Shown one piece after another: positions 4,836-38,389 of a DNA stretch of 47,322 nucleotides (its first letter is position 1; every line of letters starts with the position of its first letter). Origin of the DNA: Psammoneis japonica (taxonomy: Eukaryota); assembly GCA_008632985.1 (NCBI GenBank), contig QPGO01000164.1:124001-171322 (forward strand), given 5' to 3'. Both the position numbers and the translations under genes were made by a program. The notes below the pieces were generated by a model. The model searched no databases. It worked only from the letters and a program-made list of their open reading frames with translations, and was not told the origin of the DNA.

Positions 4836-5406
4836 ATGAACTTCTGCCATGCGTTCAGCACACCGCACTCGAACATGTCGCACAGTTCGTCATTGGGCAA
4901 TGGTGCCGGTGTTTCTCCATCCTCCGTCACGGGTGGAAACTGAGAGACACAGCCGTTAATTTCAACAGCCCTCGTGACGCAGTCACGAGGAGAAACCTCT
5001 GCGGGCTTGCGCATGAAGTGTCGCAGACAATGCTTCTGCAACAGTGCCGCCCCATGTGGGAAGATACTTTCCTTTAGCTTCGCGACGCATGCTGCATGCG
5101 CAGTGTTGGTTTGGGATGCCTGCTTGTCAGCGGCATTGTTAAATGACGTCAGAGCATCGCCCTGCAGTGGGTCACGCATGAGGGCAATTTCGCTGGCCCG
5201 GTCGTGATGTTTTGTCCTTCGTGCACGCGATCCACGTTGCGTAGAAAGATCAGGAGTGTCTCGCATGTAGCCGTGGAAAGGTGCGGAATGCCCATCTCGT
5301 GCGTTGGACTGTCCGGATCAGTGGGGTTGTTGCGTAGCTTGAACGTCTGGTGCTCGCCCTGCTGCAGCTCTTTCTTCTCCGGCCGTGCGACAATCCGCTT
5401 CTTCAT
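4836..5406 (-). pseudogene. Gypsy gag fragment (frameshifted)
   Basis: FKLRNNPTDPDSPTHEM...GQNITTGPAK...LQGDALTSF...RHFMRKP...LPNDELCDMFECGV resembles diatom Gypsy gag. Confidence 0.75.
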
Positions 5407-8400: not shown

Positions 8401-8734
8401 CCAATGTGCTCCACAGCCTTCACACTTTGCACACACGGATGTGAGGGGAGGAGCATCACCATCAACTCAAAACTTGTTCTCTGCTTTTGGGTGTCATGGT
8501 GCAATCACTCATTGTGGCTGGCACAAGCTGCGTGAAGCCAGGCAAAGGCAGATGAGGCAGGTTGCTCTCAGCCACAATGACAAGGCAGCTTGCCACTGTT
8601 CCTGTGTTGATGGGGCAGTCTCAATGAATGCAAAACCTCTTCAATCTGACTGCGCATGCAGGAGACATCCTGGCTGGCCTGAAACAACAACAGCGGGAGT
8701 GCAACAAGCTGACAGTGCGTCTGCCACCTTGGAG

Positions 8735-9009
8735 CAATCTTGAAGGTGCAATGCACTGGTGCTGTGCACATGAACCATGATCCTCAATTGCGCACAGCAA
8801 CCAAAAGTGAGATGGAACCACTGCACACAGATTGTTTCAAATCACATCACAGCATCTCTTGCCACTCTCACAAAATCACCATCTGCAATCCAACAAAGCA
8901 CTCTCCAATTTCTCCAAAAATGGCCAAGCTCATTGTGTTTGCCCTGCTTTTTGCCGCTGTTGTCTTGTCGACCACCACGACCATCAAGGAGGACAATGTG
9001 GTGCATTCC
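8735..9009 (+). pseudogene. Degraded 5' fragment (upstream region plus signal-peptide start) of a secreted-protein gene; paralogous to 26396-26680
   Basis: Shared blocks aaccatgatcctcaat, tttcaaatcacatca, ctctcacaaaatcaccatctgcaa, gaggacaatgtggtgcattccc; ATG at 8920 reads MAKLIVFALLFAAVVLS. Confidence 0.6.
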
Positions 9010-9181
9010 CCCCTTCTTGCCCAGCAAGTCAGTGCAATCCAAAATGTCTCATCTAGAGTGCGGAATTGCTCAAGATTTTCTCAATGGTGTGCATTGCAAA
9101 TCATCTCCAGGAGCACACAGGCATGGCCCCAATGCAGGCGACAAGGGTCAAAACCAATTTGAACATGGAGAATCTGTGAAG

Positions 9182-18100: not shown

Positions 18101-21100
18101 GCACACGTGCATGAGCACCAGCAGCCATGTGTGGGCAGGCGAACCGAAACGATCCATGACAGTGTTTGCCATGCGCTTCACGGTCTGGTGTCGACGCTCG
18201 GCAAAGTTTTGGTGTTGCTGGTGAGGCTCACTTTGCCAGCTGGAGATGAAGAGGGCTCGTAGAATCCCGAGCACCTTGTTGCTGATCTCAACTTGAGCAT
18301 GGTCGCCAATGAGTTTGGATGGGGCACCACGCTCACGGATCTGATCCTCGAGTGTGTTGACAAACTCCTTGTCCATCTTGGTGCCATGGACGTCAGTGAC
18401 GGTGGACTCGGTGCCAACAAACAGTTGGGCGCTGGTGCAACCAGAGTCGACGGCCGGGGTGTCGGCACAAACGGTGTCAGTGGCGACAGGCTCGTTGCGG
18501 CGGTGCACATTAAGGGCGGGGTTGGGTGATTTGCAGGCCTTGCGAAGGTGTGTGCCGGCGGGCATGCGGGCGCACTGCGTGGTGCAGTCAAAAGTACGAC
18601 GGACCGCATCGGCAGGTAGGAAGCCAAAGCAAGGCCGAAGAGACTCGAAGGGGGGGTCCTTGGGCTGTACAGTGCGCTCCGGAGGTGGAACGTCATCGCC
18701 CTGGGGGCCAATCGCATGCAGATGACACTCGCAGAACACGTCGTCGTTCGGAATGAGGTGATCATCGAGGGCGGACGCGTCATCAGCAGACAAGGAAGCG
18801 GACATGATGGTCTCGTTGACAACAACACAATGACGGCAGCAAACAGGTTGGCAGTGGGATCGTCCTGCAGGTCAGAGATCGCGTTGCACCACTGGTCGTC
18901 GTCAGTGACAGAGTGATCGAGGACGGAAGGATCCCATGTGTCATCACCGGGTGAGGATGACATGGGGCAGGGTGTCCCATTCGGCATCAGTGCAAGGTCG
19001 CATGGCAACACAAGGCAGGCCGCCCTTGATGTCAATGGGGATGACATGGCCATCAGGAGTGGCAATGCGTTGCAAGCCGTTGGGCACCTTGACAGAGCGA
19101 TCGTTGACATCCTGTTTGTGCCACTCGAGCTGGCCGCAGGAATGGATGGTCTTGCCCTTTCCCGTGTGTGCGCACTGATGGAGGATGGCGATGACGGGAC
19201 CACGCTGGGTCTCAATGACGGCACCCGTGGTGACAACAGGGATGTCCACCAATTGATGGTCGTCAATGCCCTGAACGTCGACTTGGCGAGAGGTGCGTGC
19301 AATGACGCAAACGTCGTCGCCAGCAATGCCGCCGTTGGCCCCACGATCGACTAGAGCACCAGTGCGTGTGGAGCGATGAGCAGAGGCAGAGCAAATGACA
19401 TTGTGGTCATTGACGCGACGGCAAGTGCGGCCGTCAAGTTCCATGTCATCGGCAGAAGCTGGCGGGGTAGAGGGAGTGGCGGATGGCCCCGGTCGACTGG
19501 TGTTGGGGGCTTGGTTAGGAGACAACAGATGGTGCAGATCACCGGGTGGCAGTGGCCTGCGCTTGGTGAGGTGCGCCAGGATGGGATTGTCCGAAGTGGC
19601 ATCCACACTTGGAGCGGAGTCACCAGAGTCAGCAGGAGTCGTGTTGGACATGTCAAGGCGTTGGTCGTGAAGGTTGGCCGTAATGGACTCATGGCAGTTG
19701 CTGGCTCACGGATTGCGGGGAGGCGGACGAGAATGCCCAAGGATGATCGCCTTGGAGGAATGGGGCAACGAATCCCAAATCCGTTGGTGGTCGGGAGGGA
19801 GACGTTTCCATTGGTCACCGGTGAGGCTGGGACCACGGGTGTGGGCAGCATTGGCCTGAAGGACGTCAATGTCGCTGTCAATGTCGCAGAACACATCGTC
19901 AGACGGTTCCTCGGAGTGGACATCGTGTGTGCATGTGGCACGTCGGGGAGCTCGAGGTGTCGTCTTGGGTTGAAACGCACTGTCGCATTGAGCCGCCGCA
20001 GAGAGGAGCAAGCCACAGCATTGATCGCATGTGAGGCTCTTGCCACTCTGCGTACGATGCTGATCAGCTTGGTTCTTGACAGCACGGAGTTCCTCGACAG
20101 GGTGTGCGGCATTCTCAAGCATGATGCACTTTTGTCCTTCAGAGAAGTGGTCACTGGCCGGGATGAGTGCCTCGTGCTTGCGCAACTGATCTTGCCAATG
20201 AAGGATGAACCCGTGGGTCGGACCTTTCCAAGTGCCATCACCAAGACGTGCGGTGGCAAGGTGCGTGAGCAAGGTGGAGGACTCGACAGATGCGTGGGTG
20301 GAGGCGAGCGCATGCTCAGACAAGGCGTGGCAGACGGTCTGGGCGTCAGAAGACCCCACATTTTCGCGAATGAGAGCCTTGCCCTTGTCGGTGAGAAGAA
20401 CGCGTTCGAAGACGGCAAACATGTGCTTTTGCTGTTCAGCAAAGAGCAGTTTGTCTTCGGGGCTGGTCGGTTTGTACGACGAGTCTAGAATGCACTCGAC
20501 GTCTTGGGCACGGGCTTGTGCCACAAGTGAGGTGTGCCAAGTGTGCCACTGCTTGTCAGATTTGAGAGCCGTGAAAGCGGTGGGGTCACACTTGATGCCT
20601 CGCTTGAAGTCTCGCACCAGGTCGCGTGCCTTGGTCGGGTTGGTGACATGCGGAGGTGCGAGGGGTGAGCTGCCGATGGACACAGGGACACAGAAGACAT
20701 GCAGTCGGGGCTCTGAGGCGGCAGGCAAGGAACTCGTCATGCGTGAACAACGAGGAGTCATTGGCAACGTCAAGACCTTCGTGTGCTTTGACAACGCACA
20801 GACTGGTTGGAGCTGCTAACATGTTCTTATAACCGTGGGGCAAAGGGATCACATTGGCGCCGTTGTCGCACTCAAGCGAGTGATTTGGGACGGCATGAAC
20901 GTGAACAGTTCTTGATGCGAGTCCGTGCCATCTTGGGTCAAAGCCAAACGAAGAGGGCTCCCAGCACCTTGGGCAAGCACGGTTCCAACAACGTGCTCGA
21001 AACCATCGGTTTGTTGCTGACGAGTGAGAACCATGGCAGACAAAAGTGGTGTCAGGACAAGCAATTCTTGTTGGGAAGCGAAGGCAGACTTGAAACTTGG

Positions 21101-22220
21101 GTGAGAATGGACTTGACTTGAAACAGACTTGACTTGAAATCTTGAACTGCCTTGAAATCAGAAGTCGCCGGGCTGTGCCATCCCATTCGTTGTCAAGTGC
21201 TAAACTTCCCATCCGGTCCGTAGAGTTGTGCCGGCACGTCCGAACCCGCAGCCAGCGGCGCTTTGGGTTGCTTGCGAGCGGAGCAGCGGTTGCAAACCCC
21301 TGCAGGCAAGCTGACCAGAGGTGGACAAGACCCCCGAACCGTTCTTGTTTTACATTGGTTGGATTTCCCGATCAGGCTGGCCAGTTGACGCAGGCGTTGG
21401 GCACTGTGGACGAACGAACAAACGCGGGAAAGCACCCTCGCCCCAACACAGGCTGCAATCACGGCTGCTTGCTCTCACAGTTGTCGCACCAGTGGTCCGG
21501 GGTGGATCAGGTGCAATGGACTCGGTGTGCTTGTAGAGTGGCAGCAAAACCGCAGTCCGAAGAGTGGGTGCAAGTTCTTGGCCGTGAAGATGTGCACATG
21601 CACATGTCTTCAGCGATGAAGGTCCTTGAACATGCAGGGTTCTTGACCGTTAACCGATGAATGGGTGTGTCAAGGGATGAGGATCAAGGGTGGACTTGGA
21701 TGTGACCGTTGATGCATGTCTTCAGCGATCAAAGGCAGTGTGATCAATCCAGACATCCAGCGGCAAGGAGACTTGACGGTGACGTTAAATTCCTGCCAAT
21801 GCCTGGCATTGAACATGCGCAGACTTGCCGATGCATGTAGAATGTGTGCGGAGGTCCACGCAGAATTGAAGTGGCGTCGTCGGTAAATCAACGACGACGA
21901 TGGCGGTTGCTCAATGGGTTGACAATGAGCAAGACTGTCAATCTGACAGAAATTGAAGGCAAACGGCAAGAACTCAAACAATGACTCCTTGCTGCTGTCT
22001 AAATGGCAGATGAGTCTCCGCTCAGAGACCGTCACAGGAGCCGAAAGACGTGCAAGTCGGTGCAATCGGGCCACTGTTGTCATTCTTGTGAGCCTTGTGG
22101 CTCAAAAGCAAACCACATCGTGCGCAAACGCGCGGAGCTGAAGCACACAAAACTGTGCGCGGGTAAACTAAACAGCGCGCGACATTTCACGCGCACCCAA
22201 ATCCTGTTCAGATCCTGTCA
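15172..22220 (-). mobile_element. Full-length Ty1/Copia LTR retrotransposon (CoDi-like), inactivated
   Basis: LTRs 15172-15446 and 21944-22220 (TGACAG...CTGTCA); 5-bp TSD GTTGT at 15167-15171 and 22221-22225; PPT aaactggggag; domain order gag-PR-IN-RT-RH. Confidence 0.96.
15460..21034 (-). pseudogene. Copia gag-pol polyprotein pseudogene (multiple frameshifts, Tyr->Cys/His)
   Basis: gag start MVLTRQQQ (ATG 21034); protease ALVDRGANGG; integrase SEPHQQHQNFAERR; RT KARLVADGH, DIGNAHLEA, VYVDD; RNaseH WFSKKQATVETATCGSEF, NPADILSKHWG. Confidence 0.93.
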
Positions 22221-22957
22221 GTTGTCATCCAGATGAACAAACACATTCATTTTCCTGCAAAAAATGTCTCTCAAAAATCAACGCTGCTTCTTTTGCAATG
22301 TGCCGGCATCTTGTGTTTGCACCCCGCGATTTGCGCATCCGTTGCCATCAAAAAACTTTGTTTTTCATTTTGACATGGACTCTGAGCAACAGAAAAAAAT
22401 TGACACAGCAAAATTTGAGACACCTCTGTCTTTTGCTTGCTGTTGTCAATGGAGTGCACACTTGTGTCAGTGAACCCACACACCCTTTTTTGAACAAAAA
22501 CACAAAACAATGCTCTCACAAATTCAAGCAACCGGCACTGTGGTGTGAACTTGGGGTGCCGATCTGCGCAAACAACGAAAAAGAAAATGGCTGCAAAACG
22601 AGCCAGGAGGTGCAGGCCTTTTGCAACATCTTTTAGTTTGCGACTTACCACTTTGGCACATAACCCACTCTTTGGGCCCTGATGGGTAGACAGCATGCCA
22701 AAGCGACATGTCAATCGCAGTTGCAGAAATGCCTTCTGTAGCATGCACGGTGAAAAACATCTCTTTTTAAAGAAGTTTTGTCAAAACGTATAAGTGTGCG
22801 GTATAAAATGCGTCTTTTTCAACCATTTTTGTCAAAAGCTAAAAGTACAGCATGCCCGGACGTCAACGCGCGCAAGATCTGCCCAGGTCTCCATTCCATC
22901 GGTTCCATCAAGGCAGAAGAAGGCAGAAAACGCCAACAAAACACACGAGCAACAAGC

Positions 22958-24508
22958 ATGTATCGTCTCCTCCTCTTCTTTCGAGTGCTGCTGCTCTTCC
23001 TCCATGGTGGTGTCGTACAACTAGCACAACAAGAGTATCCGTTTGATGCACCGACAGACGATTTAGCTGCGGCTCTGGATCACGTCCTGTTGACCTTTCG
23101 ACAATCGCCGATGCTCGATTCCGCCGAACTTGGAGTTCTGGAAGAATCACTACGGGCCGCCTCGGCGTGTATACCGTCCGTGTTGCCGGAGCGAACAACC
23201 CAATCGGAAGAACAAGAAAGGCTTGATGAGTTGCTGAATTGGTTTCATCAATCGGGCGGAGAGACACTCGCAGGACTTGAAATCCAACTCGATGAACGAA
23301 CGAACGAGCGAGGTTGGTATTATTCGAAAGCCGGCGACGCATCTTCCTCGGTACAAGTACTGCAGCCCAATACGACTTTGATGCGGATACCAGACGATTT
23401 GATACTGCGTCCCATGCCGCCGGACGGCAACTTATCATCCAATCTCAGTTCGTCGACCCGCCTGGCCGTCCGGTTAATACAAGAAATGCGCCAGGGGACG
23501 CATTCCAAATGGCTGCCCTACCTGAAAACATTACCACCCGTTGATCGTTTGCAGACGCACTGCCTGTTGTGGCCGTGGCAGTCGGTCGATCCGCTTCTCG
23601 TCACGGCCAATCCCGCGGCGCACCAGGAAGCCTGGCAGGCACGACGGGGCACCTTGCTCTCGTACGTCATGACGTGGTCTTTGACGGGTTGTTCTTGGAC
23701 CGACTGGCAGTACGCCGTTACGGTCGTTCGCAATCGACAAAACAGTGCCGATGGGACCGAAGTATTCTTGTTGCCACTTTGGGACATGGCGAATCATGAT
23801 ACGGACGCTGCGACGGAACTCCTAATGACGACGCCAGCCGGCGGTTTCTTGTGGAAGACGACGGCAAATTCGCTGTACCCAGGCGACCAAGTCACCATGA
23901 CGTATTCGCAGTCGCGGCCACTGCATCACTACGCGCTCTATCAAGGCTTTGTCCCCGCAGTTCCTCCGGCTGTTGCCACCCTTTTGACGTACAGCGATCC
24001 GGCCACGTCGTCAGAGCGCCAACGGCTAGCCAAGGCCAATTCGGTCGCTTCACTCGGCACGGACGAGACTATATGGAATATTGAATGGATACGAACAATT
24101 AATAAGAACAACGATGCGGAGGAAGAACAAGCATGCTTGTTCAATACGACATCCTGTTCCTCCACTGAAGATATTGTCATTCCAGCCGGCTTGATTCTGC
24201 ATTGTGCCTACATGTGGGAAGACATGGCAGTTTTGAAGGAAATTATTGCAAGGTACAAGGACAATATGGACGAGCAAGCGGCTCGTCTGGCGGCATCAAA
24301 CCGAACGAACCAGCTTTTGATGCACATTTTTGATACGATTATCGAGGACATGAAATTGCAGGACACAACGACAACAAATATTGTTTCGAACGAACTACGA
24401 AAATTAGTGACCGACTGGAGGGCAGCGGAACTGCTAGTGTTCGAAAAGGCAGCACAGCACATTCAGTCTCTGAGATCCAAAAAGGAAGAACGAGATGCGG
24501 CAGCGTAA
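22958..24508 (+). CDS. SET-domain protein (Rubisco LSMT/SETD3-like lysine methyltransferase fold) with a hydrophobic N-terminal signal-like peptide, 516 aa
   Basis: Long ORF with normal TA and Tyr content; SKWLPYLKTLP, LLPLWDMANHD and GDQVTMTY..HYALYQGF motifs; probable ATG at 22958 (MYRLLLFFRVLLLFLHG). Confidence 0.85.
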   Translation: MYRLLLFFRVLLLFLHGGVVQLAQQEYPFDAPTDDLAAALDHVLLTFRQSPMLDSAELGVLEESLRAASACIPSVLPERTTQSEEQERLDELLNWFHQSGGETLAGLEIQLDERTNERGWYYSKAGDASSSVQVLQPNTTLMRIPDDLILRPMPPDGNLSSNLSSSTRLAVRLIQEMRQGTHSKWLPYLKTLPPVDRLQTHCLLWPWQSVDPLLVTANPAAHQEAWQARRGTLLSYVMTWSLTGCSWTDWQYAVTVVRNRQNSADGTEVFLLPLWDMANHDTDAATELLMTTPAGGFLWKTTANSLYPGDQVTMTYSQSRPLHHYALYQGFVPAVPPAVATLLTYSDPATSSERQRLAKANSVASLGTDETIWNIEWIRTINKNNDAEEEQACLFNTTSCSSTEDIVIPAGLILHCAYMWEDMAVLKEIIARYKDNMDEQAARLAASNRTNQLLMHIFDTIIEDMKLQDTTTTNIVSNELRKLVTDWRAAELLVFEKAAQHIQSLRSKKEERDAAA

Positions 24509-25564
24509 TGAGGTTGTGTGGGAGATGGTTTCGCTTCGCTGGGACGTACCGATGGCGCGGTCACGGTTTGGCGTCGATTATAAAGAATGGAAAGGATCCT
24601 TCAAGGGACACGTGGTATTTCAATGCGGGACCGAACAGTGATGTCTTCTCTACGACCGGTGCTAACACAAAGGTTCCTCAAGCTTGAATGTATCATTGGA
24701 CGTGGTGTAAAGATGCCAGACGGCCTCAGCAGCAGAATTGGATTTATTGTTGGCAAAGTGGATTTCCCTGTGGTCCTGGGGATCCGCGTGGATCTGCACT
24801 TGAAAACCGATTCTCGTTTTCATCCTACGGATTCAGTTGAGCAGCTCATAATTTAGTCAGAGTGTGTTTTGTGAAACCATTTGACTAGATGCAAGTTGAC
24901 TACTTTTGAGTAGAGACCTTCTGCTCTCATTTTGTCTGAGGTGTCACGCTACTAGACTGGACAGCTTCGACTGGTTTATTCGCCCAATTTAAGAACCTCA
25001 CCCATTTCACACCTCCATTTGGGGATGCCCAAACTACAGCATGTTGCCTGCGGCTCTGACTCTGTCAGAATGATGACAAGCTGTGCTCTGCGCCACTTCG
25101 AGCGCTCCAAGTTTGATTCTGGTGTCTGTCTCCGCCAGCTGATCGACATCATTTGAGTCGACCCTGCTCAAGCACGTGCTGCTGTTTCAGGTCCTGCCCC
25201 ACCCCATGACAACCTGGAACCCAGGAGAGCTCTCCAAGCTCTTTTTTTTTTCATTGAAAGAGTCCAAGATGGTTGGTCCACATTGAAGGAGCCCACCGAC
25301 CTGGATGCGATGGCTGAGGAAAGGCCACCTGTGGAGCCTCCTCCTCCAGAAGCCACTGATTGAGGATCCACACCCCCTTTGTCACACCCTCCCAAGGATG
25401 ATGAAGAGAAACTGCCTCCTCTTGACCCTTGTTCTGTTGATGACAATGATTGAAACAATGAGGAATCCCTCTCTCCTCAAGATGCTTGTACAAAATGATG
25501 CTTTGCAGCCATGCTCGCAAACACCTTGCCAGAACTGACTCAATTCACACCTGCCACCCCAGTC

Positions 25565-26280
25565 ATGGGAGGGGTTCAGGGCTCTGCCAAGCATGCTGCT
25601 TGGACCAGAGGCAAACCCAAGGCTGGTTGGTTGGGTCGTGAAGACTCTGCTGACAACGCCCCATTGTCAGAGCATCTTTCACCTTGACGCACTCATCAAG
25701 GAGACTTGCAGACATTGAGAACAATGTCACAAAGCATTTGAAAGACAAAGAACTTGACACAACAACTCACCTTCTCCCAATTCAGAGGAAGGTTTGTGCA
25801 AAACTTGCTGTGTGACCAGACATTCTTGTTGCACCAAGGCCAGTGTTTCCACCCTCATTGCTCCCCAGGTTCTCAGGCACAACTCCTGTGATCATGACAG
25901 CAACAAGGATGCCATCAATTTTCTCAAGGCAAGCATTGACCCCAGCCTGCTGACCAAGGTTCTGACTGGCATTTGTTGTGATGATTCTCAGTCTGTCCAT
26001 TGAATGCCTTGACAAGCTCAAGAAAAGCAACAAGAACATTTCTGCAGCCACTTGTCATGGTCAAGACCTGTTCCTCATGTCAAAAGACTTCAAGACATTT
26101 TAGGGAGTTGTGCACACAGCAGGGCAATGTGGCCACATTTTCACAAAACATTGAGACCTTGAAGGAGAAACTGGATGCCCCCCTCCTGCCCAAAATTGCC
26201 TTCAAGCAGTCTAGAGAGGATGCTGTTCATGCAATGCACACCATCCTGACCCACCTGAAATGACAACATTGGGAGTGCAA
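25565..26280 (+). pseudogene. Degraded gag remnant of another Copia-type element
   Basis: MGG...WTRGKPKAGWLG...HLKDKELDTTTHL...DHDSNKDAINFLKASIDP resembles diatom Copia gag from recall; TA-depleted, many stops and frameshifts. Confidence 0.5.
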
Positions 26281-26395
26281 CAGGCTGACAGTGCATGGCT
26301 CGATTGAGGGAACGAGGATTCCCAGTGGGTGCATGTCACACCACGATGATGACTCTTGCTCTCTTGCCAGACTCACTTGCATCCACCACCTGCAA

Positions 26396-27031
26396 GAAAT
26401 CTTGAAGGCCCACCTTGCCAGCTCTGTTCATGCAAACCATGATCCTCAATGGTGCACAGCAACCAAAGCAAAATGGCAAAACTGCACACAGATCATTTCA
26501 AATCACATCAAAGCATCTCTTGCCCCTCTCACAAAATCACCATCTGCAACCCAACAAAGCACTCTCCAATCTCTCTAAAAATGACCAAGCTCATCCCTTT
26601 GCCCTGCTCTGCACCACTGTTGCCTTGTTGCCCCCTCCCCCCCCCCACAACCATTGATGAGGACAATGTGGTGCATTCCCAGTGCAGAAGCATCTGTGAC
26701 ACTGCATTTCCGCCCAGCAGCAGCCGGTGGATGACTCTAGAGGACACAAAAAGCTTTTGCAAAATTGCATTCCACCAAGCCTGGAAACTATTTTGCCTTT
26801 CCCGTTGGGGTTGAGGAGCGTGCCTTGACCAATTTTGCTCCACAAGATGTCACGACTTGGGTTGAGATGCACGGGTTTGCTCCATTGGACGGTTTTTGCT
26901 ACACTGGCACCACAACAGGCGGGCCCCATCTTTGTTTCGGGGAAAATGTGCAGCTTTCAAAACTGCTTCTTTGGACTTTTGGGGGGATCCTGCCACGTTA
27001 CGGCTGCTGGCCATCAGACGATGGAAGTTGA
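26396..27031 (+). pseudogene. Degraded secreted-protein gene, paralogue of 8735-9009
   Basis: Nucleotide similarity over about 280 bp; ATG at 26581; frameshifts; TA content recovers towards the 3' end. Confidence 0.5.
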
Positions 27032-28549
27032 CAAATAAGAATGCAAGATGTGTCGTTGGGTGCATTGCTGGGATTTCAACAACTTTGATGCTGATCAAGT
27101 CTCTTGTGCTGATGTCACAAAGTGCATGGAACAACTCCAGACCACCACCTAATTTGCCGATGCTTGATCGCCAGTGGCCCTGTCTTGACAGTTTTCACAG
27201 TGTACCCTGACATATTCGCACATTTTATAGAAAAGAGATTTGAATTCACACTGAACAATCTCTTCGTCTACTGGCTTCTTCATGCAAGGAGAGAGCGTAG
27301 CTGGACGTAAAACAAACGCAAAAATAGAATAAATGAAACCAGAAGGCGACTCTCTCTCACTACGGCCATGGTTGTGGCAAAAAGACTCTGGAGACATTTT
27401 TTTGCCCTGTTGTTGCCTGGAGAATCATCGAGACGAAGCATGGATATGTGCTGTACTTGTAGAATCCATTCGTTTGTTGAATTTTGATGAGTGCCGTTCA
27501 ATTGTCTGAAAATGTCAGCCACTTCAGTGTGGCGAGAGAAACGTGATTGCTAGCCCTACTGCGATCTTTTTGTGCTTGCGGCGTCATCAGCGTGACTCTT
27601 CCTGCTCTCCAAACAAGTCCCTTGGGATGCCATATTGTACCATGTGTGTCTCGGTATCCATCTTATTGCTACCTATTGACCACTGCGCAAAAGTGCCGCT
27701 TTAACGAGTCACTCGTCATCATTTTGTAATAATGCTCTTGTCGGAGTGCCACACGGATGCATCTACGGGTTGCCAGCATCTCAGTCCGATGCATGAGCTA
27801 TTGTTTGTACCTGGCATTCGATAAGCCGGGAAAGCAACAATGTCTCACTCACGTCACACATAGCAATCACACATAGCAACAAAATTGATTGCAACTCTAC
27901 AACGCAAAGAAAGAACAAGGGAGCAAGCTATTCTAATGGGGTAGGTTTCACTGCGTCAAAGCCAAACGTCCACTAAATCCTTGTTGTCACAAAGCTGTCC
28001 ACATGATGCACACTTCCTCGACCGCTTCTGTTTTAGCCGAAGAGCAGCGGTCCGTAAACGGGCGCTAACATGTCATTTGTCTTAATCGCACAAAGCTTAC
28101 CCTGACATTTTCTTCCGCACATTGGTGCAAAATGCCTTTTTTGTCTCGAAAATTGCACACAGGACACGCGAGATGACCTTTCAAGAGGGAAACCTGCGTT
28201 GTGAGTTCTTTCCGTAGTGAATTCCGAACTCATTCCTTGTGACTTGGACAAGCTGCTTAATCTCTCTTTGCGATTTCTGTTGATTCCCGATACGCCACCG
28301 CCGAGGACTCCACAAGTCGAACTTTCTCTTCCATGTCTTTGGTGGCTTCCTTGGATTGCTACAACTTCCTTTTCCTGCTGCAACGTTGCTTTCAACACAC
28401 TCGCTAGTGCCGTTCTTACCTTCTAAGTAGCTAGAGCATCCAGTGAACGACTCCAAAATAGTACACATTGATACAATCCTGCATATTGCGTTTCAAGCAT
28501 CGTTTGTGTAGCCACAAGCAGAGGTGAATATAAGTCGTGACGCAAAACT

Positions 28550-29554
28550 CTATTGCTCTTCAAAAGGATTGATTTCATCCTCAGCATTATCATGAGCCAA
28601 CACAAATGCATCAAGGAGAGCCGACTGCATGCTAGCAGAATCATACACCGCCGGCGTAAATGTATGCGTGACTTCTCCGACAATTATTGTTTCATCCTCT
28701 TCAAAAAGCGTACTCTTCTTTGCTTGCGCTCGGAGATGGACACCGAGAGGGCCAATGGCAATAACGGAAGCCTTTTCAACTACAAGACTCTCTTGCATCC
28801 GCCCCGGATTTAGCTGTTCTGCGGCAAGGGCCACGATTTCAGGCTCAAACGCCTCGTCATTCAAAAGCTCCATCAGGTACTCGCAATCCTCATCCAAAAA
28901 GGCCGGCTGTTTCCACCATGGTGGCAAATACATGGGTTTTTCAGCTGCAATATCTTTCCATTCATGTGGCATATCATCAGCATAGGCGGCAGAAATTCCA
29001 GTGTTTCTCAGTTTCGACAATGCTTGTTTGTCCAACTCGTCAATATTTTCCAAGAAACAATCTTCCATTCCTGCGTAATCACTACAATTCTTCGGGAAAT
29101 CCACCGGAACTCGGACAGCCACAAGCGATACCCCAGCACGTACCGTGGCTTGAATGTCCACGTGATTTTCATCCAAACTCACCACCTCGACATGAACAAT
29201 TTCCTTGAGGTCTAGGCCTTGGTCTTCCGGACAGAACGCCGTAGCTATTCTCGCCAAAGCAGCAACCTTTTCCGACTCTAGCATTTCTTTGATATGAGTT
29301 AATGCTGAGCCTTCTGCTGTAGTATCATCATAGCTCTCACCTGTAGACGAGTTATAATCTTCAGCATCGACGTAGGTTTTAGAGTCATAATACACAAGAG
29401 CAGGTAGTTGAAACGAAGTTCGACGACGGTGGTGAACAACATCAACGGCCAGACTAATAGCACCACCTGATGAGACAAAAGCTGATGTCCTTTCGAGCAA
29501 AGAGACAGTGCTTATGAAGGCAAACTTTAGTAGTACCCTTTGTGAAAATGGCAT
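28550..29554 (-). CDS. Nuclear-encoded plastid-targeted protein of unknown function (possibly DUF2470-like), 334 aa
   Basis: Intact ORF with normal Tyr; signal peptide followed by TSAF (heterokont ASAF-type cleavage motif) and a basic transit-like segment; acidic mature region. Confidence 0.8.
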   Translation of the reverse strand: MPFSQRVLLKFAFISTVSLLERTSAFVSSGGAISLAVDVVHHRRRTSFQLPALVYYDSKTYVDAEDYNSSTGESYDDTTAEGSALTHIKEMLESEKVAALARIATAFCPEDQGLDLKEIVHVEVVSLDENHVDIQATVRAGVSLVAVRVPVDFPKNCSDYAGMEDCFLENIDELDKQALSKLRNTGISAAYADDMPHEWKDIAAEKPMYLPPWWKQPAFLDEDCEYLMELLNDEAFEPEIVALAAEQLNPGRMQESLVVEKASVIAIGPLGVHLRAQAKKSTLFEEDETIIVGEVTHTFTPAVYDSASMQSALLDAFVLAHDNAEDEINPFEEQ

Positions 29555-30703
29555 GATGGAAAAGAGGAGGAGAGAACAGGGATCTTTGTGGGGTGTCCGA
29601 GCAATAAAGACGGCTTCGCTGTTCGTGTTTCATCTGGCGATGTGCCATCGCCGAATCATGAATCGCATCATCGCATCATCATCGCTGAAACCGCGCGCGT
29701 ATGCTGTGAGTCCCGCGAGCAAGCACGGAGGTTGACAGAAACAATAAAGACACGACCAGCAACGGAACAGCGATCTCCATTCACGTTGTACTGTCGTGCT
29801 AAATGGTTGTTCGCCGTCGTGCTCCCACATTGTGCTTCCGACCGTGACCCGTGCCACGAATCATTGTGTCAGGGAGAAGCAAGATGCAAGCCCAAGAGTC
29901 AGAGCTTGAATCCACGTTGCACCGAATCACGCAAGAGGAGGTTGGAAAAAAGCCTCTAAAAACCTCGAGAGCAAGTTTGAAGACCTTGAGAGCAAGCTTC
30001 TTGGGACAATTGCAGACAAAAATGCATCCGCGTTTGTGGCAAAGATCAAACAAGTCCTTGTGGGGGCAGCAAAAACAATGGCGACATTGACGATGATGGT
30101 GATGATGATGGGAACAGAGCAAACAATGGCCATGGTCTTGTTGTGGCCGCTGGCACAAATGTGCCCACCTTGTGTCTGCAGTGCACGTCCTTGTGGAACT
30201 CATCAAGAACCTCCAAACATCAAATGACGAAGCAGTGAAGCATGCCCGTCATGCTGCACATGCAGCTTCAGGGCCCCTGCCACCTGTGTTTGAACTGCGC
30301 TGGGGAGCAGACGAAAAATGCCAAGATCCTGCTGGCAACATGTTGCCCTTTTGAATGACAAACTTGTTCTTGCCAGAAGACCATGTCTCAAGTGGCAAGA
30401 ATGATGTTGCTTGTGCCCGACCACACAGCGCCACGAAGAAAAATCTTAATTCTGGATTTTTTCCCATGAGAAACCATCGCTCGAAAGGTGCAGAAGTGTG
30501 GCTGGAAGACTGGTGATTGGACACGGAAGCATTTACACAAAAGGGCAGGTTGTTGAAATGCAGGAAACACGATTGACAGTGGCTGCTCATTCTGCACTTG
30601 GGAGCAGTGGTTGTCCCCTGTTGGACAACGATCGCAATCTGCTCGGCCTTGTTCATGGTGTGTCAAAGCACTGAGGCAAGTGTCACTCAACCGCTGCTTC
30701 AGG

Positions 30704-31367
30704 AGTGGATGCGGAAAAATCTCCCATCTTCCAAGCCATCACCAAATGCTGGAACTGAAAGCACCAGCTCTGTCTGCATGCAGTGCATTTTTGTTGTTTT
30801 CATTTCTGCATGCTTTGTCGGTTGCTTGGCTCTTCATTGTCATGCACTCTGGCAAAGCACTGATCCAAGAAGGAGCCAGACCAACCAATCAACAGAGGTC
30901 TGGTTTGTGTTGACGTGATGAGTTGGTGCATTGGTTGCTCATTCTGCTGCTGCTGCTCTGGTCAGGTGGAGGTTCAAAGGTGCACAATCATGAGTCGTGA
31001 TCACCCAATTCCCATGCATTTGTTGAGTTGGGCTTCAACATGGGTGCCATCACTTGCGCCCTTGCAATCTGGTTGCAATTTCAAAATTGGTTGCACAGCA
31101 AAACAAAGATGAAAACAAAATCGGTCATTTTGGTCATTGCACATGAACAAATCCAGCTGCACGATGGCTCAGCCACTCACAGTGCTGGCATGACAACAAC
31201 ACAACAACCCCAAAGACACTCTGAAGCCTGTTGCAACAAGAAGCCCCCCCCCCCACGAATTTCTGCCACATTTTGGCACATCCCCCCCTTCATGCAAAAT
31301 TTCCACAGATGTGACAAATGGAAATGTTGCCGCACTCCCAATCTTTTAAAAATTGTTGTCACTTTTC
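30704..31367 (-). pseudogene. Inverted, internally deleted, hypermutated duplicate of the upstream region and 5' part of the 33525-35447 gene
   Basis: Reverse complement of 30744-31367 aligns to 32912-33618; 30704-30743 aligns to 34500-34539. Confidence 0.88.
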
Positions 31368-31592
31368 CACCATCAATCCTTTTCAAGAAATGTGACATGC
31401 TGCACCTCAACACAACATTGCTGCATCTCATCACAACTTTGCAACTCTTGCTCTCATTGTCACAGATCTGCTTTGTTGTCACTTTTCTGTTGTCAACCCT
31501 TTTCAAGAAGCATGGCATGCTGCGCCTCAGCATGACATTGCTGCATCTCATCACAACTTTGCAACTCTTGCTCTCATTGTTGCAGCTCTGCT
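31353..31592. repeat. 120-bp tandem duplication
   Basis: Period 120 (tttcaagaa at 31381 and 31501; gcaactcttgctctcattgt at 31441 and 31561); many differences are CA vs TG. Confidence 0.88.
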
Positions 31593-32427
31593 CTTTGTCA
31601 AAGTGGGTGTGGGTGCAAAACTGGCACCATCTCCATCTTCCTCAAAGTCAAACATGTTTCAACAGAACACACCAACTTGCTGGAATGGGTTTGTGAGTCA
31701 TGCTTGTCAACAGGAAGAAGCAATGTTCAGATGCACATGTTGTCTGTTCAATGAGAGCAAAGAAATGCAAAAGAATGTGCCAGCTTGAGTTGACTTTGGG
31801 AAAAAAATGTGTGCACCTGGCATGAGGGGACCGAGCTGCAAGAAGGGTCATGATGCGACATGCCACAGGAGCGCAAATGTCTCCAATTGTCCCCACCAGA
31901 TGAGCTGACCACATGGGTTCTGAAAGAAGTGCAACCCAATTTCCTTCTGGGGGTGCTGCCAAATGAATGCAAAAACAATTTGCTCAGGAGGCGGGTCTGT
32001 TGCTGGAAAATGCTGCTGAGTCACTCAGCTTCAGACTGTTTGTGGGAAAGCATCCCCAGTGTGGATCCTTTGCATTGCTTGGCTTCCACACCAGATGCTG
32101 GATCACAAACACTGCCTTTGCTGGACCCAACAAATCTCTTGCTCATTGGTCAAACCGATGCAACAGCGTGCTTGACCAACAATGTTGGAGTTGCTGATCC
32201 ACCAGATTTGGAGTCTTTTGGCCTGGACTTTGAGTCAACAGCAGAAGACATTTTGTGCAAAGAAACTTTGAAGCAAGGAATGACTCTCCACAAACTCCCA
32301 TCATTGCCCTTCCACTCAACAATGGCTGCAACATCGACTCCATGCTTGGCTCACATGTGTCAACCGGTTTCCACTGGAGTGCCAGAATTTGCCCCCCCCT
32401 GCTTTTCTGACACCAACATCTGCTGCT

Positions 32428-32817
32428 GACGCGTTCCAGCCGTAGGTGGGACTCCGTGTGACATTGGGCCCGTAGAATTCTACGTGCGAGCTCCGTAGTA
32501 CGAGAATTTAATTAATGGATATATTTATCTTCAACATCAAATAAACGGCCAAGTTTGTGGTACAATTATGCCTCTCACCACTCGACTTTTTTGCAAATGC
32601 GCCTGCCCTACGCGATTCTTAAGACATTATAGAATCGCGCTGTAACAAAAAATGTCAAAAGTTGTTGGACGGATCGCTCAATAAGTGTACCGTAAAATGA
32701 CACAAAATATCGAAAAAATCACGTAGAAATCTACGTGCGCGACATACGACGTGATTCAAAAAACTATCGATGTCACAGTTCAGTAGTACGAGGTCCCACC
32801 TAGACCTGGAACACGTC
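32428..32817. mobile_element. MITE (390 bp), TA-rich and largely unmutated copy of the family inserted in actin
   Basis: TIRs gacgcgttccagccgtaggtgggac / gtcccacctagacctggaacacgtc; 4-bp TSD TGCT at 32424-32427 and 32818-32821. Confidence 0.92.
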
Positions 32818-33524
32818 TGCTCATCAACTCAGAAGACAAAAGACAAGAGAGCAAGAGTGCTGCTGTGAGGGAAGCAAACATCATGCAGAAAACAGTCTCC
32901 GTGGGTGCATCGAAAAGCGACAGCAATTTTTAAAAGATCAGCACAGCAACATTTCCATTTGTCACATCTGCAGAAATTTTGCATGAAGGGGGGGGGGGGG
33001 GGGGCATGTCCCATGTGCCAAAATGTGGCTGAAATTTGTGTGGGGGAGCTTGGGTGAATGCAGCCCCCCCTGCAAAATCTTGGTGGGTCATCCTCCAACG
33101 GCGCTCACTTGTTGCAAGCAGTTGCAACAGGCCTTAGAGTGTCTGTGGGATCATCACATCGTCATTGCTAGCACTGTGAGTGGCTGAGCCATTGTGCAGC
33201 TGGATTTATTCGCATGCAATGACCGAAATGACCGATTTTGTTTTTCATCTTTGTTTTACTGTACGGCCAATTTTGAAATTACGACCGAGTGATGGCACCC
33301 ATGTTGAAGCCCGACTCAACAAACGCGCGGGATTGGGTGATCACGACTCGCCGTGATAACGCACCTTTGAACCTCTACCTACTTAGAGAACTAGAGAGTA
33401 GAGTAGCAGTAGTAGAAAGAGCGACTAATACACCAACACATCACGTCAACACAAACCAGACCTCTATTGATTAGTCAGTCTGGTTCCTCCTTCTTAGACC
33501 AGTGCTTTGCCAGAGTGCGTGACA

Positions 33525-35447
33525 ATGAAGAACCAAGCCGCCGACAAAGAATGCAAAAACAAAAACGACAAAGACGCATCGCGTGCGGATAGAACTGGTG
33601 CTTCCAGTTCCAGCATTTCCTACGCAGCGTACGCCGCTTCATTTGATGACAAGCAGCCGCAACAACGTGACGATGTAAAAGGACTACCTTCGCGTCACCA
33701 AAATGAATTTCAAAAGAAAGACCACAAGGCCGAATCTCTTGGAGAATCTGTTCTTGATAACAGCGTCATTTCCAACAAAGATCCCGGGTCTCGGTATCGA
33801 TTAAGCCAAGCACAACAAGGGCCAAAAACGGAAGCTTCAGGTGACGAAGTTGCTCTTTCTCATTTTGAGCCTACTGATACGCCGCATGATGCTGGTGTTG
33901 TTCCTGGGGCAGTTCGCGTGGCTGGTCCTGGAGTTGACTTGACCAGTGACCGTGAAGAAGATGATACCTTTGACATTGAGATGGAACAACAAGCAAATCC
34001 TACTATTGCTGATACTACTTCGTCTCAAGCACCGCAGCATCAAGGCGAAACTCTCCTGCAGGCTGAACTTGTGACACCCTCAAGCAATGATGGAAAAGAA
34101 ATGGCGTCCGCGTCGGCTATTCCTGTCCATCCTTGGAAAACCCGTTTGTCTGTTGCTGTCCTTGTCTGTATTTTAGTGGCTTTGTCAGTTGGCATCGCTG
34201 TTCCGCTTACAAAAAGGTCGTCTTCGCCTTCACCGCCAGCAACCTTGGCGCCGTCGACTTCGTTTCCAAGCAGTAGCCCTACTACAACCCCGGCGCCGAC
34301 TTCGCAAGAACAGATTACGGTCGTTGTTGGGCTCGACTCGAAGCCTCGCGAAACGGGATGGAAACTGGACTGCGACGGAACCAATAGGGCGAACTTTCCG
34401 ATTGGAGTGTATGATGAGAGGAGTGCTAATCGCAATTTGACTGCTCAGTTTCCTGTTACGGTTGGACAAGAATGTACATTTGTGTTGGAGGATGCAGGTG
34501 GCGACGGCTTAGAAGACGGGAGATTTTTCCGGATCCACTATGGACAAGTGTATTCAAGTAACGGTACTCTTTTGGCCAACGGGGACGGCAATTTCACGTC
34601 TAAAACGCAGGTCGATTTTACCATGGTAGCTCCACTGACGCAGGCTCCAACTACCTTTCCGTCAGCATCACCAACGACCACTTTCCGACCTTCTTTGGCT
34701 CCGTCAGTATCTCCGACAATATCGTTTGTGCCATCGATTTTTCCAACGAGAGATCCAACATCGCCTCCGACTGCGGCGCCAACGACTCGTCCAACTCCAG
34801 CGCCAACTCTTTTGCCAACTCAACTGCCTACTTCGGTGCCAACATTCGCCTTGACTTCACGCCCGACCCCATTTGGTACGATTATCGGTCCTCCTCCGCC
34901 ACCCGGCCCTCCGTCTCCGTCACCGCGACCCACGAGTCTTGTTGCTACTTCTCAACCAACGCCAGCTCCAACAAGCTTTCCAACAAAAGAGCCTGAAGGA
35001 TTCAAAACGATTCCTCCCACCCCATATCCAATGACACAGCATCCGACTCGGTTTCCAACTCGAGCTCCTACGCTGTCTCCAACGGTTTCGCCTACTCCAA
35101 GCATTCCTGTCAAACTCACGGTAGTGATTCAGCTGGATGAGTATCCATCGGAAACAGGGTGGAGCATGGTTTGTGACGACACGGTGTTGATAAGGGTGAA
35201 TCCCTCAACCTATGCCCGAGCAAATGAACGCGTGACAGAGGTCTTGACAACCAGAGCCGGAGCATCGTGCATGTTTGAAATTTCAGATTCATTTGGTGAT
35301 GGAATTTGTTGCAAGTTTGAAACGAGAGGCTTTTATCAATTGTTTTTTGGAGAGGACACCAGCGATAGGGCCAATCTGATTACGTCAGGTGACGAATTTG
35401 GAGCATCAGAAGCATTTCCATTTCAGGTGAGAGAGCCTGTCGGATGA
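33525..35447 (+). CDS. Single-pass membrane protein with PGAVRV motif, Pro/Thr/Ser-rich stalks and two repeats of a diatom-type extracellular domain, 640 aa
   Basis: Intact ORF; TM LSVAVLVCILVALSVGIAVPL; repeats VVVGLDSKPRETGW..DAGGDGL and VVIQLDEYPSETGW..DSFGDGICC; probable ATG at 33525. Confidence 0.88.
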   Translation: MKNQAADKECKNKNDKDASRADRTGASSSSISYAAYAASFDDKQPQQRDDVKGLPSRHQNEFQKKDHKAESLGESVLDNSVISNKDPGSRYRLSQAQQGPKTEASGDEVALSHFEPTDTPHDAGVVPGAVRVAGPGVDLTSDREEDDTFDIEMEQQANPTIADTTSSQAPQHQGETLLQAELVTPSSNDGKEMASASAIPVHPWKTRLSVAVLVCILVALSVGIAVPLTKRSSSPSPPATLAPSTSFPSSSPTTTPAPTSQEQITVVVGLDSKPRETGWKLDCDGTNRANFPIGVYDERSANRNLTAQFPVTVGQECTFVLEDAGGDGLEDGRFFRIHYGQVYSSNGTLLANGDGNFTSKTQVDFTMVAPLTQAPTTFPSASPTTTFRPSLAPSVSPTISFVPSIFPTRDPTSPPTAAPTTRPTPAPTLLPTQLPTSVPTFALTSRPTPFGTIIGPPPPPGPPSPSPRPTSLVATSQPTPAPTSFPTKEPEGFKTIPPTPYPMTQHPTRFPTRAPTLSPTVSPTPSIPVKLTVVIQLDEYPSETGWSMVCDDTVLIRVNPSTYARANERVTEVLTTRAGASCMFEISDSFGDGICCKFETRGFYQLFFGEDTSDRANLITSGDEFGASEAFPFQVREPVG

Positions 35448-38389
35448 GGTTAATACTAATCAGTCGTCGGCCAGCAGCGTTACAAGCAAGGCATGCGCAG
35501 CTGGTTCATCAGGTTCATACTGTTGCATGTCATTCATACTTACTATAATGCATAAGATGGAAATTGTTGTGAACCCCATCGTAAGTCCTGTGCCAAACCT
35601 GTCATCATTCTGTTTCATTCCTTGAGGCTCGAAGTTGGTTCTTCCCTTGGCGGAGGAGTGTTCGGCACCGTCGGCTTCGTACTTTTTTCTTGCTGATGCG
35701 ACAAGGGGGCCGCCATTGCCGTTGTTCGCAAAAATCTGCTGCTTGGCTATGATGTGTCTAAAATCAAATGTAAGATGACCACAAGTGCTTCACAATGCTA
35801 AGACAACGCACTTATGTTCCCACACATTACTCCCGTTCTCCACAGAAGTTTTTCTTATCGCCACAAGGTGACAACAATTGAGCCGTCGTGGACGCAGAAT
35901 GTCATTGTGGCACCGAAAGAAAAAATGAAGGATTCCATTTGCCCTTTCGAGCTCTGACAAAGATCGAGATTGGCGGCCCAGGTGGACAGCTAAAAAAATC
36001 TATGTAAAAAGACACAGATTTGTGCGTTTGTGCGTTTGTGTTTTCCGGAGCGGCCCACTTGCGACAGGCCTGTGTGACGCGCGCGCCGCAACATCAAGAG
36101 CTTTGCGTCGGTTGCTCTGTCAACATCTTCTGTTAAAGGGCAGCAGACTTCTTTCTGCCCTCCAAGCAGGAAGCAAAAAGAAATGGAAAGACACGCAAAA
36201 TGGTGACCACGGGCGTGCCCATCACAATTTCTTGGAGTGGAAAGAGAGTCAGGCCAATCCACAGGCTGGTCGGGAATGCCGTGAATCATGCAACAAACCG
36301 AGTCCATGGTTCTGGACAAGCCAAATGTGTGGTGTCTGCTTGACTCATCCACAGAAGCCCACTTGTCCAACATTCTCTTGCATTTTTCAATGTTTTCAAT
36401 GACTTGAGATGCACTCAGCACATTTGCAACCTCGGCTGCTTCCTTGTCAGACAATGTTTGGTTTGTGCATCAAACCAAGGCAAAGCCAATGTGACAAGAC
36501 TTCTCAAGTCTGGGTTGTGATCCACCAAGTGCTCTTGTCAAAACTGTCAAGATGAAAAACACAATCCCTTGATTGGCTCACTGTGAAACAACCCAGCATT
36601 GCAGGCATGGGCATCACCACTGAGCCACATGATGTGGTGTCGTTGTTGCTGACCACCAAAGAACTGTTCCAACTGGTCATGCTGTTGTTGGACTTGGCAA
36701 CGCAAGTGCGCCATGCCTTGACAAAAGCCACACAAATTTGGCATTGATTTGTGATGCTTTTGTTTGTGACTCCAACAATGCATCATCGTGTTCCATCCAA
36801 CTTTCAGTGGCCGTCATGACAAGAGAAGAGCAACCGTGTTCTCTTGAGAGCTCATCATGGCCTGCAAATGTGCTGTGCACAACAATCATTTCAGCTGGCT
36901 GTGAGAGAGAGCCAACCATGAGATTGTGTGGCTCTTGCTGTCATGTCATTGGACAGTGTCAGCAGACATTAGAAAGACCATCCACCACAATCGAAAAGAT
37001 CTTGTTCAGTGCAGGTTCAGCGCAAATCCTGCTTTCTTTGCACCTCAAGGGCCTTGAGCGTGCACAGGACTGCACCTCTGATGTGTCCTGCCCCCCTGGC
37101 TCCTTGCGACAGCACTTTTGCATGTGGTTCCCTCTGACACTGACAAAACTGCTGGGGCACTTGTGACCATCCTCCGATGGCTGCAAAGGTGCACGTGAGT
37201 GTGGCTTTTCCCACTGGTGTGCGTTGCCAACGGACGGAATCTGCACCTCTCGGGACTGTTTTCCTCGCGAATTGTGTTTGCTTCATAGAAGTGGCAGGAC
37301 TGCGGCGAGCGCCGGCTGCATGAAGTCAGGTGGGACTCATTCAGTCACGCATGCGCACACACCCTCCGAACGCCACTCACCATGAGAATCGGAACGGCAT
37401 TTCATGCCATTGCCAAACCTTTTCAACAACAGCAGTGCTTTAGAACAGTTTCTGCCATCACATGGAAACCATTTTCATCACTTGTTTGAAGGCAATTGCT
37501 CAATCGAAAGGTCAAAAAATGGATTTTGTAATTGCATCACCATCCGCTGCTCTTTTTCGTGTGCTGTCGCAATGCAATCGTGTTGCGCTTTCGTGTCACT
37601 GACTCGTTCTTTTTGTTTGATGCACTCATTTCATGCGCTCATGTGGGGAGCATTTCGACCATGTTAAAAGCCCTGACGAGGAACAACGGCTCTCAGTTTC
37701 ATGTCGACATTTGAGCCATTTGTCTGTGGCCGACATTTCTGCATCAATCGAAATGGGGCTGTTGCGTGTCATGCACTGTCTTTTGGATCAAGCCAAGCAA
37801 CGGATGGTCGATTTCATTGATGATGTGGATTGTGGTGTGCGTCATTTGATGGCAGACAACGGCAAGTGTATGATTTGTGGAGCTCACAACTTGCTGCCGC
37901 GAAAAATGATGATGTTCACCTCGAATGCAAGCAACTGACGACACTTTCTTGCCATTTTGCATTTTTCTTACTCACTGTTGAAAGCTTTAGGTGCTTGTTG
38001 CTTCACTGCGGTTCTACACTGCATTTTTAGCCGTCAATGTCCAACCTGTCATCTCGACTTCTCATGGTAAAAATTGGGTTGGATGACATGAATCCAGGAG
38101 GAGGTTGGGGTCAGAAAATTCGCCGGCCGGTGGTTTTGCAATCTCTTGACGGCAAGTGGCACTTTTGTGATGTGAACTCTGCTTTTTTTGTTGAGACGTG
38201 TGCCAAAAATGTTCTTTGCTCATTGTCCAAAGCTGCCAACACATCCTGCTCGATCAGGGACCCTTCCTGATCGGCGGAACAGCGGTGGCACTGATGCTTG
38301 CGGAGAAACTTCTCCACAAGCTGGTGGACACGGACAAGGAGTCGTTGCCGAGTTCATCTGAAATTGCGCAACAAGCCATCATGTGTCCA

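Follow-up and report, generated by a model that had tools for sequence, protein, structure and literature searches.

The window analysed here, 47,322 nucleotides of Psammoneis japonica DNA (positions 124,001 to 171,322 of contig QPGO01000164.1), contains two copies of one MITE family in opposite states. Copy A is rich in the dinucleotide TA, while copy B, which interrupts an actin pseudogene, has lost most of it. The DNA that surrounds copy A is itself TA-depleted. How did two copies of one element come to differ in this way, and why does the TA-rich copy stand in DNA from which TA has been so largely removed?

Dinucleotide counts over the whole window give observed/expected ratios (o/e) of 0.20 for TA, 1.51 for CA and 1.49 for TG. 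Two-state segmentation resolves the window into 12 segments, with 35,936 bases in a TA-erased state and 11,344 bases in a TA-normal state. Erased DNA makes up ~76% of the window (35.9 of 47.3 kb), has TA o/e values of 0.02 to 0.09, and contains a Copia-type retrotransposon, a second LTR pair, an actin pseudogene, a pseudo-copy of a gene fragment and other non-genic DNA; in every erased block, the counts of CA and TG are near-equal. The TA-normal state comprises four blocks of 2.4 to 2.9 kb, a 517-bp patch (5065–5580) and MITE copy A. The four large blocks, with TA o/e of 0.50 to 0.56 and CG o/e of 0.92 to 1.12, harbor one long intact ORF each (Table 1), and the blocks end within a few bases of gene, LTR and MITE borders. 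Transitions between normal and erased DNA lie, for instance, at 25035, 27150, 29800, 33130 and 36005. All four genes are single long ORFs, and the genome appears to be intron-poor; genes of the alga Bigelowiella natans (B. natans), discussed below, are intron-rich, and the proteome of that species is public. A search of a protein collection with the SET-like gene found no relative, which suggests that no public proteome covers this genome. Rfam and tRNA scans of the window returned no match, and no viral genes were recognised within it. The AAA-ATPase_like gene is an unusual one for a eukaryotic TA-normal block, and its closest clusters in feature space come predominantly from bacteria and archaea, and a PD-(D/E)XK nuclease domain is frequent among them.

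Table 1. Coordinates of the features discussed in the text (window numbering)
Feature	Position	Strand	Description
Second LTR pair	3786–4231 / 5487–5933		Direct repeats of ~448 bp, 92% identical, ~1.25 kb between them
Actin pseudogene	9187–11008	-	Split by MITE copy B; frame shifted once near 10050, in an A7 run
MITE copy B	10150–10852	-	TA-erased; in actin coding sequence; target-site duplication AACA
Nested second-family MITE	10282–10591		310 bp, inside copy B; inverted ends of 16 nt, 94% complementary
Copia-type LTR retrotransposon	15172–22220	-	RVT_2; LTRs 15172–15446 and 21944–22220; TA-erased, CG-rich
Intact ORF	22754–24508		SET/Rubisco-LSMT-like, by feature search
Intact ORF	28550–29629		In TA-normal block
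Left flank of copy A	29804–32427		TA-erased, CG-poor; 4 TA, 583 CA+TG
Erased inverted pseudo-copy	30744–31367	-	Of 32912–33618 (5' end of the gene at 33498 plus DNA upstream of it)
Target-site duplication, copy A	32424–32427 and 32818–32821		TGCT, 4 bp; read from sequence
MITE copy A	32428–32817	+	390 bp; 29 TA, 29 CG, 46 CA+TG
Left terminal inverted repeat, copy A	32428–32457		Partner 32788–32817
Subterminal palindromic motif	32471–32488 and 32722–32739		CGTAGAATTCTACGTGCG, near both ends of copy A
Right terminal inverted repeat, copy A	32788–32817		Partner 32428–32457
Right flank of copy A	32818–33128		TA-erased; 1 TA, 65 CA+TG
TA-normal block	33135–36005	+	Surrounds intact ORF 33498–35447; TA o/e 0.51, CG o/e 0.97
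Intact ORF	45500–47320	-	AAA-ATPase_like (PF09820); continues past window end

Copy A is short and non-coding, has terminal inverted repeats, a target-site duplication and an empty site, and belongs to a family with many copies, features that identify it as a MITE. The window contains no autonomous partner, and a 4-bp target-site duplication is not by itself diagnostic of a transposase superfamily. The inverted arms as reported are 33 nt long and 79% complementary and extend 3 nt into the flanks. No ORF of at least 170 aa lies inside the element, and ORF 31854–32429 overlaps its first 2 bases only. The palindrome near both of its ends is a possible transposase-binding site. In composition, copy A is the least skewed segment in the window, genes included, with o/e values of 0.95 for TA, 1.62 for CG and 1.0 for CA+TG. 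The ratio of TA to CA+TG is 29:46 in copy A, compared with 5:648 in 2,935 flanking bases (Fisher p 1.6e-26), and CG is rarer in the flanks as well (CG:CA+TG of 55:648, compared with 29:46; p 1e-11). The TA-depleted DNA described on both sides of copy A by the original prediction is thus present, although on the right it is only 311 bp long. A TA-normal gene block begins at 33135, 318 bp from copy A, which places the element near the edge of an erased block and not deep within it. Copies A and B are the only members of the family in the window, and a 23-base MITE pattern had 0 matches in scans of public metagenome contigs and 0 in viral contigs.

When copy B is reverse-complemented, its alignment with copy A covers all 390 positions of the latter. 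The 57 mismatches comprise 47 transitions (from A to B, 19 T>C, 13 A>G, 10 C>T and 5 G>A) and 10 transversions, so that 32 of the 57 are T>C or A>G. These changes are concentrated at TpA, where 24 of 58 A/T bases were altered by T>C or A>G, compared with 8 of 163 outside it (Fisher p 3.8e-10). The 29 TAs of copy A read CA at 15 sites, TG at nine and TA at five in copy B, which contains seven TAs, the five held in common and two within the nested 310-bp element that copy A lacks. In addition, nine of the 29 CGs of copy A are CA or TG in copy B, and the TA and CG of the subterminal palindrome are mutated there. Three CA/TG doublets, with CA in one copy and TG in the other, were also found between copies A and B, and copy A may therefore have received a few hits itself. 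The nested element has its own sibling 3.6 kb away (14198–14429, 90% identity), and both are TA-erased. The sequence-only prediction had counted about 29 TAs in copy A, which is exact, and about 25 sites in the sibling that read TG or CA, for which the direction holds and the count is 24; the one sibling site that it gave as CG does not occur in the alignment. Its statement that the sibling has no TA that copy A lacks is true over the shared sequence, and the opposite states of two copies of one family agree with its view that TA loss is not intrinsic to the element.

For the MITE itself, polarity is read from the surroundings and from parsimony, with two copies in the window. Four comparisons that are independent of the MITE strongly support the direction as one of TA lost, not gained. 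The actin pseudogene covers all 16 tyrosine positions of the reference protein and encodes Cys at six of them, His at eight, Phe at two and Tyr at none; TAY>TGY yields Cys and TAY>CAY yields His. Comparison of the Copia reverse transcriptase with eight homologues shows the same replacement of conserved tyrosines by Cys or His, with three tyrosines retained; its closest relatives, ~63% identical, are found on metagenome contigs. The 17 TAs in the 5' region of the gene at 33498 correspond, in the inverted pseudo-copy, to eight CA, eight TG, one TT and no TA. Finally, the LTR pairs (see below) and other members of the Copia family agree. Among the best-supported 40 of 929 differences between the window and contigs of a public sequencing run, X1, all of which lie inside the Copia element, at three single sites the window reads CA and the family contigs TA (37–77% of depth), at 11 sites it reads CA or TG and they read CG, and no site shows the opposite direction for TA. 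The polarity from TA to TG or CA that had been proposed from the MITE pair is thus borne out by each of these comparisons.

LTRs of an element are identical at integration. The Copia LTR pair contains six CA/TG doublets and three sites with TA in one LTR only. The corresponding numbers are seven and nine in the second LTR pair, the repeats of which look like the LTRs of a truncated element, and both pairs contain very few differences beyond these two kinds. Such doublets arise when the two LTR copies of an ancestral TA (or CG) are hit independently, one on each strand, and mutation therefore took place after integration, on resident DNA and on both strands. Editing of an RNA intermediate before integration was considered and is excluded by the same doublets. 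In the second pair, each LTR keeps different TAs. This is an intermediate state and indicates that the process is cumulative, as had been suggested from the MITE copies; a further suggested tie to sexual cycles finds no support here, and the published process in B. natans ran in asexually propagated lines. The second LTR pair, with its intermediate erasure, adjoins the 517-bp TA-normal patch. Among the TAs that survive in erased DNA, TTAA, CTAA and GTAA are enriched and ATAT is absent (0 of 167, compared with 27 of 411 TAs in normal blocks), which suggests a neighbour preference, with TAT the most sensitive context and TAA the least.

TA loss is confined regionally. In the four intact ORFs, TA o/e ranges from 0.28 to 0.71 over all three codon phases and from 0.42 to 0.71 in the largely synonymous phase 3-1, and TA is also retained along ~340 bp of non-coding DNA upstream of ORF 33498, in the normal arm of a duplication. 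These findings rule out selection at the protein level, which we considered as the cause of TA in genes, and indicate that the process is excluded from the normal blocks as regions. The duplication itself is informative in this regard. Its stretch 33161–33618 keeps 17 TAs, while the counterpart arm at 30744–31194 is erased; over 32912–33128, both arms are erased. The border between erased and normal DNA, near 33130, thus falls inside a duplicated segment. This asymmetry between the arms argues for targeting by local state, either chromatin or activity, and not by repeat pairing of the RIP type. Homopolymers of differing length are also seen in this region, with a G17 run at 32988–33004 in the right arm compared with G9 at 31290–31300 in the left arm, and a C8 run at 32392–32399.

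CG decay accompanies TA loss in part of the erased DNA. CG o/e is 0.23 to 0.34 at 25037–27146, 29804–32437 and 32807–33128, and in block 7000–9100 both dinucleotides are lost, with 16 CG compared with 488 CA+TG. In the gene-fragment pair, 20 of 25 CGs became CA or TG, the 25 CGs of the gene 5' region corresponding to 13 CA, seven TG, four CG and one AA in the pseudo-copy. The Copia element, with 40 TA compared with 1,259 CA+TG (TA/(TA+CA+TG) of 0.031), nevertheless has a CG o/e of 0.85 to 0.97. An element without TA but with CG shows that TA erasure and CpG decay are separable, and the two appear to differ in their targets or in their timing.

Run X1 was available as 31-mer contigs and is possibly the data from which the window itself was assembled, and is hence not independent of it. 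Two of its contigs, of 4,282 bp (22260–26541) and 3,245 bp (26769–30013) at a depth of 60 to 64, span borders between normal and erased DNA and differ from the window by one letter each. This agreement excludes consensus and polishing errors, though not every artefact. A base-calling artefact from nanopore reading or modified bases, entertained as a candidate, was dropped once the X1 contigs matched across both erased and normal DNA. Two X1 sequences connect the flanks of copy A without copy A, as expected of an empty site. In one of these contigs, position 32427 is followed by 12 letters and then by 32834, so that the MITE and one TGCT are exactly missing. The flanks of copy A are multi-copy in X1 (summed depth 296–522, compared with ~60) and the sequences with the empty site, instead of being alleles, may come from paralogues; the insertion is therefore younger than this duplication of its flanks, which does not give its age. 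Summed X1 depth is 132,769 in the MITE bin, compared with ~60 nearby, and 58,000 to 169,000 for Copia; neither figure is a copy number, but both families are abundant. A second run, X2, the record of which does not state the library type, has long near-identical contigs on normal blocks (22992–24842, 27446–29647, 35042–35698 and 35669–35925). X2 cover is absent from erased DNA at 17000–22335, 25004–26337, 29673–31673 and 36343–36999, and these blanks are not evidence of silence. The stretch 26338–27671, which includes a repeat in common with 8773–8968 (86% identity), has summed X2 depths of 9,626 and 3,412, compared with 5 to 61 on gene blocks.

We consider it likely that a real, DNA-level hypermutation of TpA erased copy B in place, and that copy A came later or was little exposed. 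The changes take TpA to either TpG or CpA (an A>G, which the other strand shows as T>C), on both strands and repeatedly, until TA is exhausted. They are confined to transposons, pseudogenes and other non-genic DNA and spare the 2.4- to 2.9-kb blocks around intact genes, and a second, separable decay of CpG to TpG or CpA acts on part of the erased DNA. Copy B would have entered the actin gene early and then been erased together with it, whereas copy A would have inserted later from a donor still unmutated, or have been exposed very little, and would retain both TA and CG for that reason. The same changes inactivate elements by turning Tyr codons into Cys or His codons, by removing TAA and TAG stops and by destroying the terminal and subterminal TA and CG motifs of MITEs. 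Late insertion or slight exposure of copy A, taken by itself, is quite likely. As the original prediction proposed, it is plausible in view of the least skewed composition of the window and the empty sites in X1, yet this evidence is indirect, and we infer the youth of the copy from it.

Copy A could also be old but shielded, either because it is bound by protein, because it lies in open chromatin bordering the domain of the neighbouring gene, or because it is too short for targeting. The adjacency of a TA-normal gene block 318 bp away fits such a history. So does the border near 33130, which, falling within a duplicated segment, indicates that borders can be set by something besides insertion age, and fungal RIP spares short repeats. 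Shielding is nonetheless unlikely: 311 bp of fully erased DNA lie between copy A and the gene block, erasure did reach copy B, a member of the same family and length class, and copy A surpasses the protected genes in both TA o/e (0.95 vs. 0.50–0.56) and CG o/e (1.62 vs. 0.92–1.12), which suggests that it spent less time in the mutational regime and not that it was protected equally. A reversed polarity for the MITE, in which the family started out poor in TA and a RIP-like or other process gave copy A its TA and CG, is scarcely conceivable, even though the window holds only two family copies and fungal RIP does create TpA from CpA. To gain TA (C>T/G>A) as well as CG (T>C/A>G) from CA/TG, copy A would need two opposite transitions at once, and the actin Tyr codons around copy B fix the direction, in agreement with Copia, the gene fragment and the LTR pairs. 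It is also very improbable that the TA-free blocks are an artefact of base calling, polishing or library chemistry. An A7 homopolymer interrupts the actin frame and a G17 run is present, as in long-read assemblies, and X1 may be the assembly's own data; but X1 contigs of 3 to 4 kb at ~60 depth agree with the window to within one letter each, and chemical conversion, being strand-specific per read, is not expected to leave clean CA and TG side by side. Moreover, the block edges follow gene, LTR and MITE borders, and the same signature was measured de novo in B. natans. The claim that sequencing chemistry is not responsible stands on this agreement of contigs and on the tracking of gene and transposon borders.

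The chemistry behind the hypermutation of TpA may be enzymatic deamination of adenine aimed at silent chromatin, as proposed for B. natans, to which we would give close to an even chance. In its favour, A34 of tRNA, the natural substrate of ADAT, always follows U33 and so presents a UA context. The thymine of TpA could instead be enzymatically modified in silent domains, to 5-hydroxymethyluracil, 5-formyluracil or a base of the J type, and mispair with G to give T>C. On this reading, the loss of TpA would be the trace left by a mark, in the way that CpG decay traces 5-methylcytosine, and the footprint would be the same as that of deamination. Where dinoflagellates and kinetoplastids hydroxylate thymine, they favour a T followed by A, and 5-formyluracil is misread as C. 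In the window, the domains in which CG and TA turn into CA/TG overlap, and the gene "islands" are unaffected, as a thymine mark would have it. The Copia element, however, lost TA and kept CG, which indicates two decays and not one mark, and the sole experimental study, that of B. natans, proposes a deaminase. No paper that connects TpA depletion with 5-hydroxymethyluracil turned up in a literature search, and we regard a thymine mark as rather unlikely.

What follows from TpA hypermutation concerns both the genome and how it is read. We raise, tentatively, the possibility that it is no occasional response to viral inserts but befalls all silent DNA by default, with genes as "TA islands" comparable to CpG islands and a TA clock that starts at insertion. 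The transposon family would then be mobile only through copies that are not yet erased, and copy A would be among the few live substrates in the region. The genome would harbor a genome-wide mirror image of RIP, outside the chlorarachniophytes. Where the 2026 report concerns two viral inserts in one alga, here the signature is near-complete over retrotransposons, DNA transposons, a pseudogene and non-genic DNA. The window also supplies natural controls beyond the published case, namely sister MITE copies in opposite states, LTR pairs and a half-erased duplication, which argue for targeting by DNA state and for TA content as a mark of insertion age. There is a consequence for annotation as well. 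In TA-free DNA, TGA is the only stop codon left, and long spurious ORFs arise on both strands; because TA erasure never makes a stop codon, dead genes pass as intact in ORF finders, and pseudogenes in TA-free DNA look intact to gene callers. Many overlapping ORFs of 170 to 422 aa are present on both strands of Copia at 15596–21660. The actin pseudogene still has an open frame of 325 codons despite 14 changes of Tyr to Cys or His as well as changes of Arg to Gln or Trp.

Judged by its sequence, the window appears to carry TpA hypermutation of the B. natans type, with an identical signature. Mutation-accumulation lines of B. natans yielded 302 nuclear mutations, 231 of them in two integrated viral regions, which consist of giant-virus and virophage DNA (Mettrop et al., bioRxiv 10.64898/2026.01.13.699255). 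Of these 231, 230 were A>G or T>C, and the GC-biased ones were all at TpA; hypermutation occurred in 11 of 15 asexually propagated lines at ~6e-7 per site per generation, about 1000 times background (bioRxiv 10.64898/2026.01.13.699255). The same preprint describes 124 clusters poor in TpA and rich in CpA+TpG, finds coding sequences low in TpA to be enriched for reverse transcriptase and DDE domains, and proposes an ADAT2-like adenine deaminase as the cause (bioRxiv 10.64898/2026.01.13.699255). By our own arithmetic, and purely for scale, its 211 mutations, 6,169 TpA and 3,132 generations work out at about 1e-5 per TpA per generation, a half-life of near 6e4 generations. The two cases are alike in that A>G or T>C at TpA gives TpG and CpA according to strand, in that the process is regional and spares ordinary genes, and in that it is cumulative, in B. 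natans also intermittent. They differ in degree, TA o/e being 0.02 to 0.09 over 76% of the window compared with 0.45 in the viral region there, and in targets, which here are a retrotransposon, MITEs, an actin pseudogene, a gene fragment and non-genic DNA instead of viral inserts. In addition, CpG too has decayed in some of the erased DNA here, and the term CpG is absent from the preprint. A literature search in which subscription journals were thinly covered returned no second report of TpA-specific DNA hypermutation.

Repeat-induced point mutation (RIP), to which the process seen here is functionally analogous, changes CpA to TpA in ascomycetes, and so makes TpA and lowers GC, and it mutates both members of a duplication; in basidiomycetes, RIP-like mutation occurs at TpCpG. 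The window resembles RIP in that dinucleotide-specific transitions riddle transposons and duplicated genes and in that blocks of odd composition adjoin normal genes. However, neither C>T at CpA with the making of TpA nor mutation of both duplicate copies was found: the change here runs in the opposite direction, destroying TpA and raising GC, and one arm of the duplication is erased while the other is not. The decay of CpG through 5-methylcytosine offers a second parallel, as there too a palindromic pyrimidine-purine step turns into TG/CA in silent DNA while gene-sized islands retain the step. In contrast to that decay, TpA is the main target here, and Copia lost TA and kept CG. Finally, editing by ADAR or ADAT, with its preference for a 5' U, shares with the window the change of A to G in a UA/TA context and, for mobile elements, a defence-like outcome. 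ADAR/ADAT editing, and that of retroelements by APOBEC/ADAR before integration, works on RNA or replication intermediates and leaves its changes on one strand. Unlike in such editing, DNA transposons and a gene fragment were changed on both strands here. Together with the doublets in the LTR pairs, these hits on both strands indicate that the substrate of the process was resident, double-stranded DNA.
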